Origin: an uncultured virus (IMG/VR IMGVR_UViG_2061766007_000905)
Lineage: Duplodnaviria; Heunggongvirae; Uroviricota; Caudoviricetes
Length of the DNA: 64,000 bases
IMG/VR virus record: IMGVR_UViG_2061766007_000905
Reading direction: 5' to 3' (one strand)
Shown here one piece after another: positions 2,422 through 61,117 of this stretch (the stretch's first letter is position 1; each line of letters begins with the position of its first letter). A model generated the notes under the pieces. That model had not been told where the DNA came from, did not search any database, and was given only the letters and a program-made list of their open reading frames with translations. Both the position numbers and the translations under genes were made by a program.

Positions 2422-3078
2422 CTAATTATAAATCTTTTCACACACTTTATCTAACCAGTCATCCCCATATTTTTCAGTCATATAATTTATTTCTTTTGAA
2501 ACATCTTTAATGACTACTAGGTTATTTACTGATTGATATTTTGCTTGACATTTCTCATCTTCATAACCTTTAATTTCTATATAGTTACTACCGTCGAAAA
2601 AATCTGGCAAATATCTATGTGTTTTATTTTGGTATTCATAAAGAAATTCTTTAGTATTACGCTCTAGCTTATTACCGTTTTCTTTATTATAAAACCAATA
2701 TGCTACTTCCCAAGAACTATCAAAAAAGATTCCGTCTGCTATACATTTTTTACCATGACCAGATTTATGAATTCTATGACCACCTACATTTTTACCTTCA
2801 GCTTTAGCTTTATGTATTCCTTCAATTAGCTTCTGCTTATGTTCTTCAGTCATTGGACCATGCAAAACTCCTAATTTTGTTTTTGCTTGTTTTTCTGCTT
2901 GATTTTTAACAATATTAGATGTCTCTTTTGTTAATCCTTTATTCCAAGCAGTATGTCCAATTGTATGTGATACATAGTTTCTATCCGGATTATGCGGACA
3001 TAATCTTTCATGATTTCTATGTGAATTCGCATTTTTACAAGTTTTCTGACACCATTTACAAATATAACATATTTCCAT
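2422..3078 (-). CDS. Free-standing homing endonuclease, Zn-finger + PD-(D/E)XK nuclease
   Basis: same N-terminus as 1389 ORF; FDSSWE..YLPDF..IEIKGY. Confidence 0.8.
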   Translation of the reverse strand: MEICYICKWCQKTCKNANSHRNHERLCPHNPDRNYVSHTIGHTAWNKGLTKETSNIVKNQAEKQAKTKLGVLHGPMTEEHKQKLIEGIHKAKAEGKNVGGHRIHKSGHGKKCIADGIFFDSSWEVAYWFYNKENGNKLERNTKEFLYEYQNKTHRYLPDFFDGSNYIEIKGYEDEKCQAKYQSVNNLVVIKDVSKEINYMTEKYGDDWLDKVCEKIYN

Positions 3079-3121
3079 ATCATATTTATAATTTGGTAGA
3101 GCAGTTAACTTGATTTTTTAG

Positions 3122-3202
3122 AGCCGGAGAGAGGATTCGAACCTCCGTAGCTTGCGCGCTTGATTACAAATCAAGTCCTATTAACCACTCAGGCACTCCG
3201 GC
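3122..3202 (-). tRNA. tRNA-Thr(TGT) with extended variable region
   Basis: GCCGGAG/CTCCGGC, CTTGA TT TGT AA TCAAG CGCGCAAGCT. Confidence 0.85.
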
Positions 3203-3505
3203 AAAATGTAATTATGTTTGTCAAACTTAATTCGTTAGTTCATGTAAGCGATAGATCTTATAAATCGCATAATACACTCGCTAACAAATAATTCGCTTCA
3301 ATTACAAAGCGTTACGTTATTTCCGTACTTTCATAACCAGGTAACGAACCTCCTGCGCCCAAGTTTCATAGATTTCTCTATACACCGCGTTGGAACTCAT
3401 GTTTCCTTTTGGACAACTGGCGGAATATTTCCAGAGTTTTACTTTCGGAACAAGTAAGTAAGCAACTTGGAGGGTCACATTGCTATCGGCCCACAGGGTG
3501 ATTTC

Positions 3506-4467: not shown

Positions 4468-4757
4468 TTTTATCCTCGTTTTATATTATATATAACGATA
4501 ATTTTTTAATTTTCGTTTTTTCGTTGATTTAAATATAGTAATTTATTTTTATTTTGTAAACCCTATTTTTAAAGTGATCTTGAAGGAATACCGATTCGTC
4601 ACCTTCATATAGACCCAGACTCTGGAAGGAATATCCAGACTCAACCCGTTACCACCGTGTCTATTTCATTTTATTGATCGTCTAGCAGACACTTTCTTTC
4701 AATCAACGTTATATAATATAGAATTTTTATTGTGTTTTGTAAACCCTAAAAATTTTT

Positions 4758-4988
4758 TTACTGAACATTAGTCAATTGAAGCGTAGTATCAGCTACCTGA
4801 AGATTTTCCGGCAAACGGACGACCAAGTTCTTTGAATAATCAACCGGAATCGGATTTGCCATATAGACATTAATTCCTTCAATCGTATTTACCTTTTTAA
4901 GTTCCTTATACGAAACCGTAGAATAGGTAACGCCGGCGATTGCAATGACAGAAGCGACCGCAAACGTAATCTTAAGATATTGCTTCAT
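4758..4988 (-). CDS. Small membrane-anchored hypothetical protein
   Basis: own promoter and RBS; N-terminal hydrophobic helix. Confidence 0.6.
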   Translation of the reverse strand: MKQYLKITFAVASVIAIAGVTYSTVSYKELKKVNTIEGINVYMANPIPVDYSKNLVVRLPENLQVADTTLQLTNVQ

Positions 4989-5097
4989 TTTGACTTCCTT
5001 TGTTTTATTTGTTTTAACGATGTTAATATAATAAATTATTCTCGTCTTGTAAACCCCTTAACTAATATAAATAATATATAAAATTTAAGGAGAAACT

Positions 5098-5406
5098 ATG
5101 AATTTAAAAGAAGCAAAAGAACAATTAGAGAAAAATGGCTATAAAATTCAAAAATTGAATGAATGTGGCAGCAGTGGTTGCGGCGGCGGAAGTGATGATT
5201 ATTCTACAGTATCAACCACAGCGCGTAAATCTCGATATAGCACATTAGAAAAACATCCATATTCCTTGCTTACCGCATTATGCAACATATATGATAAATT
5301 TGATGCATTATCAAATGATAACAAACACAAAGTGCTTAGAAAATGCTTGAATTTCTTAGATAATGATGATTTATTAGATTTTGAAAAATGGCTTAATACT
5401 CTTTAA
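5098..5406 (+). CDS. Late protein with putative capsid-targeting leader and CGSSGCG motif
   Basis: TATAAATA at 5066, AAGGAG RBS, MNLKEAKEQLEKNGY..LNE-CGSSGCGGGSDDY. Confidence 0.7.
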   Translation: MNLKEAKEQLEKNGYKIQKLNECGSSGCGGGSDDYSTVSTTARKSRYSTLEKHPYSLLTALCNIYDKFDALSNDNKHKVLRKCLNFLDNDDLLDFEKWLNTL

Positions 5407-5455
5407 ATTAAAAACTGGACTAAAAATCCAGTTTTTAAATTCTTTTAATTTCACA

Positions 5456-5653
5456 TTAACCACAACTACTATAATGGCCGCAATAATCTCTTACAACTCT
5501 GCCACAGCCAATATAGACAGTTCTCGGTTCTGAGCCGCAACCAGTATACATTGTTCTTCCGCAACCAATATAAACATAATCATCAGAAGAACCGCAAAGA
5601 TTAAATTGCGGGATTTGACTATGTTTCATTTTAATATTTTTCAATAAAATCAT
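5456..5653 (-). CDS. Cys-rich YxGCG-repeat peptide, putative RiPP precursor
   Basis: six CG motifs (YIGCG, YTGCG, YIGCG, DYCG, YSSCG, LCG); starts 2 nt after radical SAM stop. Confidence 0.7.
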   Translation of the reverse strand: MILLKNIKMKHSQIPQFNLCGSSDDYVYIGCGRTMYTGCGSEPRTVYIGCGRVVRDYCGHYSSCG

Positions 5654-5655
5654 TT

Positions 5656-6537
5656 TTATCCTTCAATATGATCTTCTAATTTTTCACCGTTCTTTTCAAG
5701 CAGCCATTTAATAAATTCTACATCATTTGCATATTCAGAAACATCATCGTCTAATATATATTCACCGAATACCCATCTTTCAAATTCACTGTCTTGAACG
5801 AAATCCCAATCATCATAAATCATTCCGTCAATAGTAATAAGAACATCATTTACATATCGTCTATTACCATACTTGACAAGAGAATGTTCTATTCCTCTAT
5901 GATAGCTAATTTTAAAGTCATCGTTATAAAATTGGTCATCGTTACAGACCATACAACCGCCAGAAACAGTGTAATCATATTTCATGATTAACTTTTCAAA
6001 TACTTCATCACGGTTCTTAAGATTGTCCTTAGTAATATTTCTATAATCAGCTCTAATACAGATATCAAGATTTTTCATACCTTTTAACGGCTGAATAAAT
6101 GCGTCAAATACATCTACATCAAAAGTTTCAGATAATACGACGTTCAATTTAATGAATTTCGTAATCTTCTTGAAATCTTCCATTGGCAAAATCGGTTCAT
6201 AAAATTTCTGGTGCATATGACGAGAGATATTGACACGCGCAATCTTGCTATTGTTTACGAAATCAATTCTTTTCTGAACATCGCCTTCCAATGGGAATGT
6301 AGTATTAACGAAGCATGGTTTCTCCATAGCATCGAGTAATATCTGACACTTTTCAATATCAGCTAACGGTTCACCGCCAGTTAATACAAATTCAGTGATT
6401 AATGGATTCTGATTAATCTTTTTAATCTGTGCTAGAATAGCATCCATATCACATGTTCTTTCTTTATACATGTGTTTGGATGTACAAAATTTACAATGGT
6501 TATGACAATCCCATGGAACAAAAATTGTGCAGCTAAG
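5656..6537 (-). CDS. Radical SAM enzyme (5' end in gap)
   Basis: in-frame extension LSCTIFVPWDCHNHCKFCTSK gives CxxxCxxC; FVLTGGEPL; extra CMVC. Confidence 0.9.
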   Translation of the reverse strand, partial: LSCTIFVPWDCHNHCKFCTSKHMYKERTCDMDAILAQIKKINQNPLITEFVLTGGEPLADIEKCQILLDAMEKPCFVNTTFPLEGDVQKRIDFVNNSKIARVNISRHMHQKFYEPILPMEDFKKITKFIKLNVVLSETFDVDVFDAFIQPLKGMKNLDICIRADYRNITKDNLKNRDEVFEKLIMKYDYTVSGGCMVCNDDQFYNDDFKISYHRGIEHSLVKYGNRRYVNDVLITIDGMIYDDWDFVQDSEFERWVFGEYILDDDVSEYANDVEFIKWLLEKNGEKLEDHIEG

Positions 6538-6586
6538 NNNNNNNNNNAAGACTGGTTGGATTCCAGTTGGATCCTTAAGAAATCAT

Positions 6587-6659
6587 GGTTCTATCGTCTA
6601 GAGGCCCAGGACAGTCGGTTCTCAGCCGTCTTACTTCAGTTCGAATCTGAATAGAACTA
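6587..6659 (+). tRNA. tRNA-Glu(CTC)
   Basis: GGTTCTA/TAGAACT, GTCGG TT CTC AG CCGTC. Confidence 0.85.
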
Positions 6660-6683
6660 CTATTCCATTAAAGGAAGTATTAT

Positions 6684-7010
6684 ATGATAACAGTGACACA
6701 AATCAACGATTTAAGAAAAGAAACCCAGGTAAGTATGCTTCTCTGTAAGCAAGCTCTTGAAGCAACAGGCGGTGATTTTGATGCAGCAAAAAAGTGGCTT
6801 CGTGAACAAGGTAAAGAAGTTACTGGTGATTCATCAGTTTTTGGTTATACCGTAATTGAGAATGCAATAGTATCAAATCAAGGTTCAGATAATAAATTTA
6901 TCTATTCTGACGGACATACATGTATAGATATTCGTGGATTTGGCGGTTTTTCTCCATATACTGTTTGGGGAAATACAAATACTCAGCTGATTTTAAATCC
7001 GGTAAAATAA
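6684..7010 (+). CDS. EF-Ts N-terminal (UBA-like) domain protein
   Basis: INDLRKETQVSMLLCKQALEATGGDFDAAKKWLREQG resembles EF-Ts N-terminus. Confidence 0.8.
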   Translation: MITVTQINDLRKETQVSMLLCKQALEATGGDFDAAKKWLREQGKEVTGDSSVFGYTVIENAIVSNQGSDNKFIYSDGHTCIDIRGFGGFSPYTVWGNTNTQLILNPVK

Positions 7011-7061
7011 TAAAAAGGATTGACTGATGTCAATCCTTATTTAATATATGCTTTATAATTA

Positions 7062-7508
7062 TTATAGAGCTTCTACATCATTAGTAACCATTTCGCGAAT
7101 ACGACGCAAAGAACCTTCTTCGTCATCTTCGTCATAAAATTCAAGTCCAGTTTCGCCAGAATATTCTATCAATGGATTTTCAATAAGAGTAATCAATTCT
7201 TTAACATATGGTGTATCGGCAATATCTATCTTTCCGATTTCTTTAAAATGTTTAGCTGTACTATCGTCTACTTCTATTACACCGCAAAACCAAATATCAT
7301 CTGGGCCAGCTTCAAACCAATCGGTTATCGCATTAATAATATCTTGTTTATTTTGTGATACTGCATAAATATATGCTGTTTCCGGGTTATTATGCGCACG
7401 GTCGCCATAAATGCTATAACATACGAAATTACGGTTTCCGGCTGCATCTTCTTTAATTAGCTTATAGCCAGCTGATTTAAGAGTTTTTAAAGCTTCAGTT
7501 AGATTCAT
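7062..7508 (-). CDS. Late protein with putative capsid-targeting leader
   Basis: TATAAATA at 7533-7540; MNLTEALKTLKSAGYKLIKE. Confidence 0.65.
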   Translation of the reverse strand: MNLTEALKTLKSAGYKLIKEDAAGNRNFVCYSIYGDRAHNNPETAYIYAVSQNKQDIINAITDWFEAGPDDIWFCGVIEVDDSTAKHFKEIGKIDIADTPYVKELITLIENPLIEYSGETGLEFYDEDDEEGSLRRIREMVTNDVEAL

Positions 7509-7629
7509 TTAATATTCTCCTTATATTTTATATATTTATAAAAATCATTTATATCAAATAAAAAATTTATTTTAGGGGTTTACAAAAGGAAAAAACTTTA
7601 CTATATTTAACAACGTTAAAACACAAGAG

Positions 7630-7749
7630 AACAGCAAAAGCGGTTCCTATCATTAATAGAGTAGCTTAATAGGTAGAGCAACCACTAGTTAATGTGGGAG
7701 GTTATTGGTTCGACTCCAATTTCTATTGCCATTATTACTGCTCGCTGTT
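7630..7749 (+). ncRNA. GTTCCTAT-helix ncRNA enclosing tRNA mimic (8-nt anticodon loop, encoded CCA)
   Basis: AACAGC AAA AGCGGT TCCTAT [AATAGAG..TTCTATT GCCA] TT ACTGCT C GCTGTT. Confidence 0.75.
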
Positions 7750-7803
7750 TATTTTGCGAAAAACAGGAAAATTAAAACATATATAATATAAAGGTTAAGA
7801 AAA

Positions 7804-7851
7804 ATGACTAAGTTTGTAGTTGACACTCATGATTGCAAGACTCGCCGCGAC
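7804..7851 (+). CDS. Leader peptide MTKFVVDTHDCKTRRD (variant copy, truncated by gap)
   Basis: identical to 23866 leader. Confidence 0.65.
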
Positions 7852-7884
7852 NNNNNNNNNNGCTTCTACCTTTAATAAATCTCA

Positions 7885-8178
7885 TTAATTTGCTTCCTTA
7901 CCAAATTCTTTTAAAATCTCATTTAATGTGTTCTGAAAAGCCAATTCACGACCTGGTTCCGGTTTTTTACCGAATATAGCTTCATAATCATGGAATGCTC
8001 CACAATCAGGATCATAATTGGTATCTTCTTCAAGAGTAAACTTATAACCCTGGTTTCCAAGACGTTGTACTAGCTTAGCATAAGCTTTTGACATTTTAGA
8101 CAGATTAGTCCCACAATAAATTGTGCAATTTGCATCAAAATGATTTTTTACTGCAATATAATAATGACGTATATTCAT
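7885..8178 (-). CDS. Hypothetical protein, related to 36397 ORF
   Basis: shared EDxNYDPDCG motif. Confidence 0.6.
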   Translation of the reverse strand: MNIRHYYIAVKNHFDANCTIYCGTNLSKMSKAYAKLVQRLGNQGYKFTLEEDTNYDPDCGAFHDYEAIFGKKPEPGRELAFQNTLNEILKEFGKEAN

Positions 8179-20442: not shown

Positions 20443-20568
20443 AAAACTGATAACGCATTTTGTTCGGTGGTAGAACAGGCGGTGTGAAGGCCGCTGGTCA
20501 CAGGTTCGAATCCTGTATGCGCTTACTGAAAGTCAATAGTACGCGTTGAGATGAGTAAGGTCAGTTTT
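20443..20568 (+). ncRNA. Composite RNA: tRNA-like domain plus 3' hairpin in a closing helix
   Basis: AAAACTGA..TCAGTTTT encloses cloverleaf with non-7-nt loop (TGTGAAGG) and CTTACT/AGTAAG stem. Confidence 0.55.
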
Positions 20569-23701: not shown

Positions 23702-23812
23702 TAGCAATAGCAGTTCCTATGAATCAGTGGAATAGCTTAACTGGATAAAGCGTTTACCGTAAGGTAAAAGATTATCGGTTCGAGTCCGGTTCCCATTTCT
23801 TACTGCCCGCTA
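23702..23812 (+). ncRNA. GTTCCTAT-helix ncRNA enclosing tRNA mimic with GNRA-capped anticodon arm
   Basis: TAGC AAT AGCAGT TCCTAT..TTTACC GTAA GGTAAA..ATCGG TTCGAGT CCGGT..TT ACTGCC C GCTA. Confidence 0.75.
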
Positions 23813-25389: not shown

Positions 25390-25462
25390 GCCTCAGTGGC
25401 GCAATTGGTAGCGCAGCTGACTCTTAATCAGTGGGTTGAAGGTTCGAGTCCTTCCTGGGGTA
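25390..25462 (+). tRNA. tRNA-Lys(CTT)
   Basis: GCTGA CT CTT AA TCAGT. Confidence 0.9.
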
Positions 25463-25470
25463 CGAAAATT

Positions 25471-25542
25471 GGGAGTATATGTCAATGGCTAGACGAGCAG
25501 ACTCTTAATCTGTGGATCCGGGTTCGAATCCCGGTACTCCCA
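25471..25542 (+). tRNA. tRNA-Lys(CTT)
   Basis: GCAGA CT CTT AA TCTGT. Confidence 0.9.
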
Positions 25543-25625
25543 TAATAACTAGCCTTCTGTTTTTGACAAGCGCAGATGGGTTTACGAAGGCCGGTAGATG
25601 TAACCGTTGGCGCAACATCATTTAT

Positions 25626-25698
25626 GCGGTAGTAGCACAACTGGTAGTGCGATTCCTTGCCATGGAATAGGTTGTGGGTTCAAGTCCCATCTACCGCT
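25626..25698 (+). tRNA. tRNA-Gly(GCC)
   Basis: ATTCC TT GCC AT GGAAT. Confidence 0.9.
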
Positions 25699-25707
25699 CT
25701 AAAATAT

Positions 25708-25778
25708 GCGTCTATGTTGTAGTGGTAGCAAACGACCTTGCCATGGTTGAAGCTCCGGTTCGAACCCGGATAGACGCT
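25708..25778 (+). tRNA. tRNA-Gly(GCC)
   Basis: CGACC TT GCC AT GGTTG. Confidence 0.9.
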
Positions 25779-25786
25779 CTAAATTA

Positions 25787-25860
25787 TCCCAGATGTAGTG
25801 TAACGGTTGCACGACAGCGTGTGAGGCTGTTAGATTGTGTTCGACTCACAACTTGTGGAC
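25787..25860 (+). tRNA. tRNA-His(GTG)-like, irregular acceptor stem
   Basis: ACAGC GT GTG AG GCTGT; TCCCAGATG/CTTGTGGA. Confidence 0.7.
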
Positions 25861-25868
25861 TAAATTAT

Positions 25869-25943
25869 GCGGCTATAACATAGTCAGGTTTAATGTGCTA
25901 GACTTCCACTCTGGAAACGTGAGTTCGAATCTCACTAGCCGCT
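25869..25943 (+). tRNA. tRNA-Gly(TCC)
   Basis: CTAGA CT TCC AC TCTGG. Confidence 0.9.
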
Positions 25944-25952
25944 TAAAATTTT

Positions 25953-26024
25953 GGGCTTATATTTCAAATGGCAGAAAACTGGACTCTTAATCCTGGAATT
26001 CCGGATCGTGGCCGGATGAGCCCA
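25953..26024 (+). tRNA. tRNA-Lys(CTT), T loop ATCGTGG
   Basis: GGGCTTA/TGAGCCC, CT CTT AA. Confidence 0.8.
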
Positions 26025-26070
26025 TATTTATATAGTGCAATAAACTCTAGAGTAAAAATATAAATATATT

Positions 26071-35525: not shown

Positions 35526-36317
35526 TTATTCTTCTATGAATTCACCATTAAATTCGTGCTTGAAGAAATCTTCTCCATAGTCACGAATCATCTTTTTCTT
35601 CCATTTGGTATCACGTCCCTTCGTGCAGTTCCAAGGAATTTCGATAGCATTAAACGAATTCAGGTTCATCTTTGCCTTGGCGTAAAGCATACAGAACGGA
35701 TGATTAGTTGTAGTCGGCGTAGAACCGATAATCATCTGAGCTCGCATACGTGAAGCCTGAGTAGGAAATACTGACATCATAAAATCATCGGTTTCTCGAC
35801 CGCCCATGTGTGCGAAATCGTCAATCAGCAAAAGGTCTACTGTTTTACCCCTTACGCTTGACGACGAAGCAGCACATGCGAAAATCTGAGTATTGTTTTC
35901 GAATCTAATACAGCTATTGTTATTGGTTTTAGTTTTTGGACGTAAGAATTCAGGAAGATGCTCGTACATATCTCGAACTCGAAATAGGATTTCAGTCGCC
36001 TGCCCATTTTTCGGTGCCATGATACCGACACATTTTTCTGGATGGAATATTGCGAACCAGAGAGCATATACGGTCAGACCTGTAGTAAAACCAGATTGTC
36101 TTGTGTTTTTGACAATATAGTTTCGTTTGATACCAAAATCATCACTTTCGTAAGAATTTACGAAACCGTTGAGCATATCTTTCTGGAATTTACGTGGTTT
36201 GAATGATTCGTAGCCATTTTCAGATATAATCTGTGTATACTGATAAAACTTGTTTATGTCTTTTGCACATTCGGCGACGATTCTGGCTTCTTCGATAGTT
36301 AACTGTTTTTTAATCAT
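35526..36317 (-). CDS. Terminase large subunit ATPase-domain-only paralog, degenerate active site
   Basis: RQSGFTT (Walker A K lost), LIDDFAH, GSTP; ends at FKHEF; late promoter 36350-36357. Confidence 0.75.
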   Translation of the reverse strand: MIKKQLTIEEARIVAECAKDINKFYQYTQIISENGYESFKPRKFQKDMLNGFVNSYESDDFGIKRNYIVKNTRQSGFTTGLTVYALWFAIFHPEKCVGIMAPKNGQATEILFRVRDMYEHLPEFLRPKTKTNNNSCIRFENNTQIFACAASSSSVRGKTVDLLLIDDFAHMGGRETDDFMMSVFPTQASRMRAQMIIGSTPTTTNHPFCMLYAKAKMNLNSFNAIEIPWNCTKGRDTKWKKKMIRDYGEDFFKHEFNGEFIEE

Positions 36318-49831: not shown

Positions 49832-49908
49832 GCTGTATTAGTTCAGTTGGTTTTTAGAACGACTCCTTGCCATGGAGTAGGTCACCAGTTCGAGCCTGGT
49901 ATACAGCT
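49832..49908 (+). tRNA. tRNA-Gly(GCC)
   Basis: ACTCC TT GCC AT GGAGT. Confidence 0.9.
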
Positions 49909-49917
49909 CTAAATAAT

Positions 49918-49990
49918 GTGTCCATGGTGTAGTGGTTTAACATCAGTGACCGCCAGTCATTGGTCGCCGGTTCGAATCCGGCTGGACGTT
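49918..49990 (+). tRNA. tRNA-Gly(GCC) with C33
   Basis: AGTGA CC GCC AG TCATT. Confidence 0.8.
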
Positions 49991-50000
49991 CTAAAAATTT

Positions 50001-50073
50001 GCCTCAGTGGCGCAATTGGTAGCGCAGCTGACTCTTAATCAGTGGGTTGAAGGTTCGAGTCCTTCCTGGGGTA
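50001..50073 (+). tRNA. tRNA-Lys(CTT)
   Basis: identical to 25390 copy. Confidence 0.9.
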
Positions 50074-50083
50074 CGAAAATTAT

Positions 50084-50174
50084 GGGCACGTAGGCTAAAG
50101 AGTGAATAACCGGATTACCAGGAGGCTGTACGCAAGGAAGCCACCGCATACGGGTTCGAATCCCGTCGAGTCCA
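50084..50174 (+). ncRNA. tRNA-like RNA with Ala-type acceptor and no canonical D/anticodon arms
   Basis: GGGCACG/CGAGTCC A (G3.U70), ACGGG TTCGAAT CCCGT. Confidence 0.55.
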
Positions 50175-50186
50175 CTAAAAATTTTT

Positions 50187-50259
50187 GCCTCTATATGATA
50201 ATGGCCTAGTCGAGCTGACTCTTAATCAGCGGGTCCTGGTTCGAGTCCAGGTAGTGGCA
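50187..50259 (+). tRNA. tRNA-Lys(CTT)
   Basis: GCTGA CT CTT AA TCAGC. Confidence 0.85.
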
Positions 50260-50267
50260 CTAAATAT

Positions 50268-50341
50268 GCGTCATTGGTGTAATGGCTTAACATGGCTGGC
50301 TTCCAACCAGCGGACTGTCGGTTCGAGTCCGACATGACGCT
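50268..50341 (+). tRNA. tRNA-Gly(TCC)
   Basis: GCTGG CT TCC AA CCAGC. Confidence 0.9.
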
Positions 50342-50350
50342 CTAAAATCA

Positions 50351-50423
50351 TCCCATACGTAGTGTAACGGCAGCACAACAAACTGTGACTTTGTTAGATT
50401 GTGTTCGACTCACAACTTGTGGA
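50351..50423 (+). tRNA. tRNA-His(GTG)-like, irregular acceptor stem
   Basis: ACAAA CT GTG AC TTTGT; TCCCATACG/CTTGTGGA. Confidence 0.7.
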
Positions 50424-60187: not shown

Positions 60188-61117
60188 TTATTCGAATTTT
60201 ATATCGTAAGTCGCATCTTCTACTTCTTCAATAGTTAGCTTTTTATTGAATAACTGTTTTAATTTTTCCATTAAACCTTTAGCTTCTTCCCTAGATAATG
60301 GGCTTGTATTTATGTTTAATGTAATCGTATTAGCTTCTTCTATTGGAGTAGAAAGAATAAATGCTGCATCATATTCTTGTGTAAAGAACTTTATACCATA
60401 ATCTCTAATAGTCTTATTTTTCCATGCTTCATCACGGCCAGGCATACAGTCATACCCGATATGCGTCGCGATAAATGATGATTTGCCAGCCTTGGCATTA
60501 GAATAGATTGTATAGAATTCATTATCTCCGTGCGGCGTGGACAGTAATATTACTTGCGAATTAACGCTGGCACTGACTGTTGGGAATACGGACTTCATAA
60601 ATTGGTCGAGCGATTTTTCTTTACAGTATGCAAATTCGTCAAAAACAATTAAGTCTATATGCTTGCCTAGAACTGCACTGCTTGAAAACGGCGCATTAAA
60701 GATATATGAACCGTTTTCGAATTCGATGCGTCCGTGTTTGCTTTTGGTAATTTTGACTTTAAGAAAATCCGGAAGATGTTCATATAATTCCATTACTTTT
60801 TCAAGTATAGATCTAGACTGGAGTTCTGTATTTGCAAGAATCGCGATAGTTCTTTGCTCGTTGAATAACGCGAACCACAAAAGATATATTATGGCAATAG
60901 TCGTTTTTCCACATTGCCTAGGAGCTACCACAACATGGTTATGCTTCATTTCTTTTCTATTAATCCAGCTCTTGGCAAACTTACGTAAAAGCTTTGCTTG
61001 AAACTGGTAAGGCCGAAATTCAGTAAAACCATCAGCGGTAAGTATTTCGATATATTGTATAAATTTGTTGATGTTTTTAGCACACGCTTTACGTATGCTT
61101 GATTGTTTGATATTCAT
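60188..61117 (-). CDS. Terminase large subunit ATPase-domain-only paralog
   Basis: YQFQ, PRQCGKTT, FDEFAY, LSTPHG, FTQEY; no nuclease domain. Confidence 0.8.
   Translation of the reverse strand: MNIKQSSIRKACAKNINKFIQYIEILTADGFTEFRPYQFQAKLLRKFAKSWINRKEMKHNHVVVAPRQCGKTTIAIIYLLWFALFNEQRTIAILANTELQSRSILEKVMELYEHLPDFLKVKITKSKHGRIEFENGSYIFNAPFSSSAVLGKHIDLIVFDEFAYCKEKSLDQFMKSVFPTVSASVNSQVILLSTPHGDNEFYTIYSNAKAGKSSFIATHIGYDCMPGRDEAWKNKTIRDYGIKFFTQEYDAAFILSTPIEEANTITLNINTSPLSREEAKGLMEKLKQLFNKKLTIEEVEDATYDIKFE

Follow-up and report, generated by a model that had tools for sequence, protein, structure and literature searches.

A radical SAM enzyme clade of jumbo phages linked to Cys-Gly-rich repeat segments, its candidate substrates

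Why would a giant phage carry a radical S-adenosylmethionine (SAM) enzyme next to the gene of a very small peptide made of Cys-Gly repeats? This question is raised by a 64,000-nucleotide stretch of DNA (the window) from an uncultured virus of the Caudoviricetes (IMG/VR record IMGVR_UViG_2061766007_000905), in which a radical SAM gene is followed by a 65-amino-acid (aa) peptide with six Cys-Gly (CG) motifs and faces a convergent open reading frame (ORF 5098) that carries a Cys-Gly stretch of its own. A previous reading of the letters alone (the sequence-only reading) had proposed a phage system resembling those of peptides made by ribosomes and modified after translation (RiPPs), which might also modify the new N terminus of a packaged protein. 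Here we describe the class of the enzyme, its anatomy and its genomic coupling to Cys-Gly-rich partners, fusions included. We hold, with moderate confidence, that an uncharacterised clade of radical SAM enzymes, residing mostly in jumbo phages, post-translationally modifies Cys-Gly-rich low-complexity segments.

The elements from which the sequence-only reading started are all present in the DNA. The enzyme frame (6537 to 5656, minus strand) contains the cluster motif CHNHCKFC, then TGGEP and CMVC, and the window enzyme scores above the cut-offs of two Pfam models, Radical_SAM (PF04055; 34.7 bits, cut-off 29.5) and Fer4_12 (27.6 bits, cut-off 22). The cluster cysteines are residues 20, 24 and 27 in the numbering of a near-identical IMG/VR contig, L003; they and G63-G64-E65 are invariant in 29 homologues. 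The peptide ORF begins 2 nt past the stop codon of the enzyme, its residues 1-19 are free of Cys, and AGGA-type ribosome-binding sites precede both this ORF and ORF 5098. Across the 64 kb, it is the only open segment in any of the six frames with at least three CG in 45 aa. ORF 5098 reads LNE-CGSSGCGGGSDDY and the peptide reads NL-CGSSDDY, as had been noticed before; the serine codons of the shared CGSS...DDY differ (AGC/AGT versus TCT), so that the two ORFs are not connected by a DNA repeat. The Cys-free start of the peptide had been taken for a leader, and here we part from the sequence-only reading, as no conserved leader is detectable in it. A 57-bp tandem unit is present in 1.4 copies in the window (5456-5653) and in 2.4 copies in the locus L005 (3989-4124), and the L003 peptide has one additional unit; near-identical phages thus vary in the number of repeats (peptides of 84 versus 65 aa), as in multi-core precursors. 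Searches of Pfam, NCBIfam and PHROGs returned no named family for the Cys-Gly peptides or for ORF 5098.

The genome neighbourhood of the enzyme family, which had been put forward as the place to check the proposal, carries the main evidence. Loci were taken from viral contigs (26 loci), from species-representative genomes (80 of 482 relatives) and from metagenomes (80 of 270 relatives). A profile search over these 186 loci (L005-L190) yielded 185 radical SAM ORFs, three of them truncated and 182 covering the diagnostic alignment columns. Partners were scanned for at a threshold of at least three CG in 45 aa in viral and close loci and at least four in the bacterial and metagenome sets. His222 is present in 182 of 182 ORFs; Cys204 and Cys207, forming a C-x2-C motif, are both present in 32. 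One of the two Cys is missing in the remaining 150, of which 143 read C-R-H, these being mostly enzymes from high-G+C Oscillospiraceae, Megasphaera and Acidaminococcus genomes. A Cys-Gly-rich partner, either a neighbouring ORF or a C-terminal fusion, was found at 26 of the 32 C-x2-C loci, and no convincing one at these thresholds beside any of the 150 other enzymes. The partner ORF lies directly downstream on the same strand in L005-L012, L018, L019, L021, L034 and L111-L116, one gene away in L035 and upstream in L118; a convergent protein is found in L006-L010 and L017. In L015, L020, L022, L171 and L182 a Cys-Gly tail is fused to the C terminus of the enzyme itself, and five further fused tails (P0101, P0107, P0119, P0020 and P0022) occur among the matches of a protein search that reported 348 hits. 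Beside enzymes without C-x2-C, five isolated hits with at least four CG (four bacterial, one metagenome) and a weak hit in L025 with at least three were considered and set aside as off-frame noise at unrelated positions.

The coupling is also visible on the scale of a whole genome. In a complete relative of 415,750 bp (G002), the threshold of three CG in 45 aa is attained by three of the 5,835 open segments in the 400 kb scanned; two of these, with five CG each, flank the radical SAM gene, and one other segment reaches three. Together, these sequence comparisons support a genomic link that is not due to chance and, as the sequence-only reading had it, a probable functional link between the radical SAM enzymes and the Cys-Gly peptides. 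ORF 5098 is part of the same set; its relatives retain a Cys-Gly stretch of variable length right after L-N-E.

The genes beside the enzyme-peptide pair vary between clades, and no conserved third gene was found among them. In L018 a second, different radical SAM-like ORF (4500-5423; CNRNCPYC) comes directly after the Cys-Gly peptide, and neighbours in L018, L019 and L114 resemble NAD-salvage genes by eye. The phage GenBank set gave no DNA match and two protein matches, of about 30% identity, in the unannotated human-faecal contigs L001 and L002. In these contigs, which belong to a peptide-less clade, the radical SAM gene is preceded by a DUF5662 gene (PF18907, E 8e-39 for L001; L001 2723-3277, L002 3284-3844), which was not seen in the bacterial loci L054, L090 and L110. 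In a full-text search of the literature, neither this enzyme clade nor phage Cys-Gly repeat peptides came up, which is no proof that nothing is in print.

What the partners share is composition and pattern. In 25 non-identical partners and tails, Gly accounts for 30% of the Cys-rich regions, Ser for 15%, Cys for 14% and Tyr for 8%. They contain 128 clustered Cys, 103 with a Gly right behind them and 14 at the chain end; ahead of the Cys stands Gly in 53% and Ser in 16%. Where the Cys-Gly region is C-terminal, it closes with C or C-G in 19 of 21 cases. The setting of these regions differs from clade to clade. A clade represented by the 317-kb genome G003 (L011, L012, L111-L113 and L115) has precursors with a conserved N-terminal module of about 30 residues, an acidic linker and a variable Cys-Gly core (alignment A4); the module occurs only once in that genome, as would be expected of a dedicated leader. 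The peptides of L018, L019 and L114 are leaderless and 50-58 aa long. In the ORF 5098 family, the N-terminal tag and the sequence L-N-E-C-G are nearly invariant; the Cys-Gly stretch is of variable length, and the C-terminal domains are of different kinds. Some fused tails have just two or three Cys, placed after a variable linker at the extreme C terminus of the enzyme. When the fused homologue L020 (alignment A3) was folded, residues 292-340 received a predicted local distance difference test (pLDDT) score below 50, and the model is uninformative on the docking of the tail. As a general reading, we also considered that the peptides are substrates of a tyramine splicease (X-Y-G); this was rejected, as the window peptide has Y-I-G and Y-T-G, not Y-G.

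Next, we placed the enzyme among known radical SAM proteins. No NCBIfam radical SAM model reached its cut-off. The best was NrdG2 (about 24.9-35.6 bits versus a cut-off of 131; E 2.5e-6 with the L003 enzyme, 5.5e-9 with L020), followed by HxsC, MoaA (TIGR02666; about 15.3-26 versus 284 bits), QueE and YydG (TIGR04078, YydG/EpeE; 21.4 versus 300 bits for L020, unlisted for the L003 enzyme). In one source, homologues go by the name 'organic radical activating enzyme', and all clusters returned by the ESM Atlas are unnamed ('radical SAM / 4Fe-4S'), most of them from viruses or Bacillota. The genes next to the radical SAM gene encode no glycyl-radical protein. The AlphaFold2 model (pLDDT 91.2, predicted template-modelling score 0.89) has a partial TIM barrel from residue 2, then beta-hairpins with C204-x2-C207 at one hairpin turn, Y-H-R-G on a later strand and an extra conserved C-terminal domain. 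Structural comparison with VIA-align gave Z scores of 14.4 for MoaA, 14.3 for GDGT-MAS, 14.0 for SuiB, 13.9 for ChlB, 13.4 for SkfB and 13.3 for viperin, and lower scores for PqqE (12.6), anSME (12.4), CteB (12.2), EpeE (12.0) and PFL activase (11.8, rank 13). Foldseek neighbours were MoaA, EpeE, SuiB and CteB, and the best sequence-profile match in the PDB was YydG/EpeE (E 9.6e-6), limited to the N-terminal core (residues 9-158). The enzyme is thus in no curated family, and its predicted fold is nearest to MoaA and to the SPASM/twitch peptide maturases.

From the coupling and the predicted structure we infer that the peptides are substrates, that the hairpin is an auxiliary site and that the chemistry could run as follows. 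In the window phage, the modified segments would lie on the 65-aa peptide just downstream of the enzyme and on the tagged, convergent 102-aa protein; in other phages they would lie on leader-bearing precursors or on the C-terminal tail of the enzyme itself. The N-terminal [4Fe-4S] cluster and SAM would produce a 5'-deoxyadenosyl radical, which would abstract a hydrogen at or beside a Cys that precedes Gly or the chain end. The C204-x2-C207...H222 site may then hold an auxiliary cluster whose open iron takes up the thiolate of the substrate, so that thioether cross-links would form as they do in sacti- and ranthipeptide synthases; alternatively, it may supply a hydrogen-donor Cys, as in the epimerase EpeE. 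A role of either kind is suggested by the co-occurrence of C-x2-C with Cys-Gly partners and by its MoaA-like spacing.

Several observations weigh against modification of the Cys-Gly segments by this enzyme. Six C-x2-C enzymes (L013, L014, L016, L032, L033 and L117) have no partner within about 3 kb, although the sequence of L117 extends only about 540 bp downstream. The complete phage genome G004 (348,671 bp), which holds L014, encodes a C-x2-C enzyme and no Cys-Gly-rich ORF genome-wide, with one of its 5,506 open segments reaching at least three CG in 45 aa, so the enzyme can exist without such a peptide. Also, the 26 loci with a partner are not independent of each other, as L005 hardly differs from the window and the L006-L010 peptides are almost the same, and the scan thresholds were unequal between the viral or close sets and the bacterial ones. 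Regarding the protein, SPASM is a seven-Cys motif that binds one or two auxiliary clusters, and many SPASM/twitch maturases have an N-terminal RRE/PqqD-like domain that binds the leader. The SPASM motif is absent here, C204 and C207 being the only conserved Cys past the barrel in the alignment, and Pfam finds no N-terminal RRE/PqqD-like domain in an enzyme whose cluster motif starts at residue 20 already. The enzyme would therefore work in the manner of the SPASM/twitch group and is not a member. The implied assignment to the known Cys-cross-linking SPASM maturases had to be given up, as the PapB, SCIFF and StsB models also match at only 12-13 bits versus cut-offs of 340-625 (E 0.04-0.07). Two Cys and one His conserved outside the radical SAM cluster are thin for an auxiliary cluster, and MoaA and viperin, which are nucleotide enzymes, are structurally as close as the peptide maturases. 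Finally, fusion of substrate and enzyme is unusual for known peptide maturases, and the fused tail is long (P0101), minimal (P0081 and P0077) or absent (L013) within one subclade.

The missing partner in G004, the optional tails and the unusual fusions together keep alive another explanation, which we regard as unlikely but serious: the Cys-Gly segments may be helpers, that is, flexible thiol tails or mini-proteins that hold iron or an Fe-S cluster, deliver it to the enzyme or shuttle reductant, with the true substrate elsewhere. C-terminal Cys tails shuttle reducing equivalents in class I ribonucleotide reductase and thioredoxin reductase, and Cys followed by Gly is typical of metal-binding knuckles. 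A helper would fit tails that sit at the very end of the enzyme behind a variable linker, sometimes with two or three Cys, and that are predicted to be disordered (L020 model). It fits less well with long repeats of 8-10 Cys with frequent Tyr, variable spacing and no fixed metal-binding pattern, with similar segments inside larger proteins that have unrelated C-terminal domains and a general N-terminal tag, and with the G003-type precursors, in which a dedicated conserved N-terminal module is joined to a variable core.

Two further explanations draw on the relatives of the enzyme. As MoaA heads the list by fold and viperin-like enzymes are close, it could act on nucleotides or nucleic acids, the Cys-Gly ORFs being unrelated low-complexity neighbours; about 150 homologues, mostly bacterial, have no peptide, and neither does G004. 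Against this stand the partners at 26 of 32 loci, ten independent fusions and the finding that the strongly Cys-Gly-rich ORFs of G002 are specific to the radical SAM locus, and we judge it very unlikely. We consider it highly improbable that the enzyme resembles a glycyl-radical activase and places a radical on the Gly of the Cys-Gly repeats, a view to which NrdG2 as the best NCBIfam match, the name given to the homologues and the Gly after 80% of clustered Cys would lend themselves. The NrdG2 scores are far below cut-off (about 25-36 versus 131 bits), PFL activase is only 13th by fold, the extra conserved C-terminal domain is absent from activases, and the 14 terminal Cys have no Gly after them; moreover, the 67%-identical relative L004 has a separate 170-aa ORF (2818-3330), two genes upstream of the radical SAM gene, that resembles NrdG by eye. 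Modification of the Cys-Gly segments by the enzyme thus remains the reading that we prefer.

The N-terminal tag of ORF 5098 raises a second question, whether the protein is packaged into the virion. A 26-column profile of this N terminus (alignment A2) matched G002 in 26 places at E≤10, and for 16 of these E is below 1e-3; the matches cluster at about 67, 150-153, 183, 196, 207, 216-217 and 272-274 kb. The sequences downstream of the tag are unrelated to each other, and they are Cys-Gly-rich only in the two that adjoin the radical SAM gene. Among 17 tagged ORFs listed, nearly every tag closes, by eye, with hydrophobic-x-Glu at about residues 19-22. We had considered this N terminus as a leader specific to the radical SAM enzyme and rejected the idea, because many proteins without Cys-Gly carry the same tag; judged by profile matches, the segment of about 21 residues is a tag of a general kind, shared by at least 16 G002 proteins that are otherwise unrelated. 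An SLT transglycosylase domain (PF01464, E 6.5e-20) is found in one of the tagged proteins, for which 'internal virion protein with endolysin domain' is among the PHROG matches. G002 encodes a prohead protease of the gp21 type (Peptidase_S77, E 6.9e-29), with weaker matches in the relatives G004 and G005, and the junction [L/I/M]-N-E-C-G recurs in distant loci (L009, L017 and L116).

The T4 prohead protease cuts after L/I-x-E. Two papers describe the T4 capsid-targeting sequences as N-terminal propeptides of 10-20 residues, found on diverse internal proteins and removed by gp21 (PMC5694885, PMC3012670). The tag would fit a propeptide of this T4-like kind, on circumstantial grounds and by analogy. 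As an addition to our preferred reading, we therefore put forward, tentatively, that the tag takes ORF 5098 into the prohead, that a gp21-type protease cuts after L-N-E and that the Cys-Gly stretch, modified by the radical SAM enzyme either ahead of the cut or following it, becomes the new N terminus of the packaged or ejected protein. This is what the sequence-only reading had in mind for the packaged protein: the widespread tag and the protease of G002 speak for it, and the cut at LNE itself stays an analogy. Some observations do not fit. The tag model does not match the 65-aa peptide, and on the near-identical contig it matches two ORFs only, neither of which is the peptide. In the G003 clade, Peptidase_S77 finds no match, and the N-terminal module there occurs on the Cys-Gly protein alone. 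Moreover, the evidence for packaging comes from sequence, with the protease seen in relatives. An extension that we think improbable is that a SPASM-less radical SAM enzyme in giant phages of anaerobic gut and rumen bacteria cross-links or otherwise rewrites Cys-Gly repeat cassettes, that one cassette in the lineage of the window comes to lie exactly at the N terminus which a gp21-type prohead protease would expose, and that the modified protein is packaged and injected into the host; if true, it would be a viral counterpart of RiPP chemistry, delivered by the virion. The shared tag of the 415-kb phage is in any case a testable candidate for a capsid-targeting signal, which could define the set of ejected proteins in a group of uncultured megaphages.

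The coordinates of the features discussed are collected in Table 1. The sequence-only reading had ascribed the missing start of the enzyme gene to the ORF track, and the real cause is a scaffold gap. In L003 the gene is uninterrupted and has 302 codons; in the window it is split by the block at 6538-7861. Its start codon is at 7885 (minus), and a single codon, AAT, is absent at the split. The block contains a tRNA-Glu(CTC) gene (6587-6660), an ORF (6684-7010), the tagged ORF 7062-7508 and a tRNA-like call (7655-7731) with a 4-base anticodon; the product of the first ORF, 108 aa long, has a sub-threshold match to an EF-Ts N-terminal/UBA-like domain (E 6.3e-7, 29.7 versus 33.2 bits). The block may be a scaffolding artefact or a strain-specific or mobile insertion.

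Table 1. Features of the radical SAM locus in the window.
Feature	Position	Strand	Remarks
65-aa Cys-Gly-rich peptide, six CG, last residues C-G	5456..5653	-	1.4 copies of the 57-bp unit
102-aa protein (ORF 5098): N-terminal tag, Cys-Gly stretch and helical C-terminal part	5098..5406	+	
22-residue N-terminal tag ending in L-N-E	5098..5163	+	Alignment A2; general in this phage group
Cys-Gly stretch CGSSGCGGGSDDY, directly 3' of the tag	5164..5202	+	Longer and shorter forms in relatives
148-aa tagged paralogue, tag ending in I-K-E, without Cys-Gly stretch	7062..7508	-	
Radical SAM gene, codons 1-8 (M-R-F-I-K-G-R-S), ending at the N-run	7862..7885	-	Comparison with the uninterrupted L003
Radical SAM gene, codon 10 to stop	5656..6537	-	CHNHCKFC, GGEP, C204-x2-C207 (invariant in the clade), Y-H-R-G with H222
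Block interrupting the radical SAM gene: N10 + 1,304 bp + N10	6538..7861	.	Block absent from L003
Terminator-like inverted repeat (hairpin) between the convergent genes	5408..5438	.	

As a whole, the window has a G+C content of about 35%, 40 predicted tRNA genes and 24 N-runs, mostly 10 N long, and PHROG matches among its proteins include terminase-like, methyltransferase and phosphoesterase families. A protein identical to ORF 5098 occurs on a contig of 438,117 bp, and relatives of the window are IMG/VR contigs of 317-416 kb; the window is therefore from a jumbo phage, the source being a giant phage of the gut or rumen. Four of the 40 tRNA calls made by ARAGORN have a 2- or 4-base anticodon ('tRNA-???'; 493-567, 7655-7731, 20452-20524 and 23726-23799) and could be pseudo-tRNAs, intron-bearing genes or odd decoders. 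The tRNA arrays at 25390-26025 and 49832-50423 hold the same set (Gly-GCC, Lys-CTT, His-GTG and Gly-TCC) in a different order, which could reflect a true duplication or a repeat created by the assembly. Two minus-strand ORFs, 35526-36317 (263 aa) and 60188-61117 (309 aa), have matches in terminase large-subunit families (PHROG 5989; E 3e-36 for the first, 8.5e-34 for the second) and may be paralogous terminase-nuclease-like genes.

To our knowledge, systems that pair a radical SAM enzyme with a Cys-rich peptide have been studied nearly all in bacteria and nearly all with SPASM enzymes, and they are a source of cross-linked natural products. The phage locus resembles the sactipeptide and ranthipeptide/SCIFF systems (AlbA, SkfB, CteB and PapB) in that a radical SAM gene stands beside a gene for a small Cys-rich peptide with a repeated, variable core, and also in the fold of the enzyme (SkfB Z 13.4, CteB Z 12.2), although fold alone is no proof of function. 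Unlike these maturases, the phage enzyme has a C-x2-C and one His in place of the SPASM seven-Cys motif, and no RRE/PqqD-like domain; the cores here are G-C-G, the partners may be fused to the enzyme or lie inside larger tagged proteins, and the system is phage-encoded. YydG/EpeE, the radical SAM peptide epimerase of the epipeptides, is its best profile match in the PDB, ranks among the top Foldseek matches, is similar in size and has a catalytic Cys after the barrel (C223, according to PDB titles), to which C204 or C207 might correspond; however, the TIGR04078 score is about 21 versus 300 bits, the match is confined to residues 9-158 and the substrates are unrelated. In structure, MoaA, a GTP 3',8-cyclase with a twitch-type auxiliary cluster, comes first (Z 14.4 over 243 aligned residues, root-mean-square deviation 4.0; Foldseek E 8.4e-7), and the C-x2-C-x14-H spacing of the phage enzyme resembles the C-terminal cluster motif of MoaA, which is C-x2-C-x13-C. 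Here, however, the third ligand would be His instead of Cys, and the genomic partner is a peptide instead of a molybdopterin pathway. Like the internal proteins of T4 (IPI-III and Alt), ORF 5098 and its paralogues have a short N terminus in common with many otherwise unrelated small proteins; by eye it closes with hydrophobic-x-Glu, and a relative encodes a gp21-family protease. The sequence of this candidate propeptide is unrelated to that of T4, and the likeness does not extend to the 65-aa peptide.

Thus, the system differs from the known cases in being centred on a clade of viruses, in having a minimal C-x2-C...His site in place of a SPASM domain, and in its G-C-G repeat partners, which occur as free peptides, as tails of the enzyme or as cassettes within tagged proteins. 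Should the peptides be substrates, this would be new radical chemistry on a very simple motif and would offer a first handle on why phages of anaerobes with genomes of 300-440 kb carry such systems. Together, these comparisons suggest a viral peptide-modifying system that was previously undescribed.

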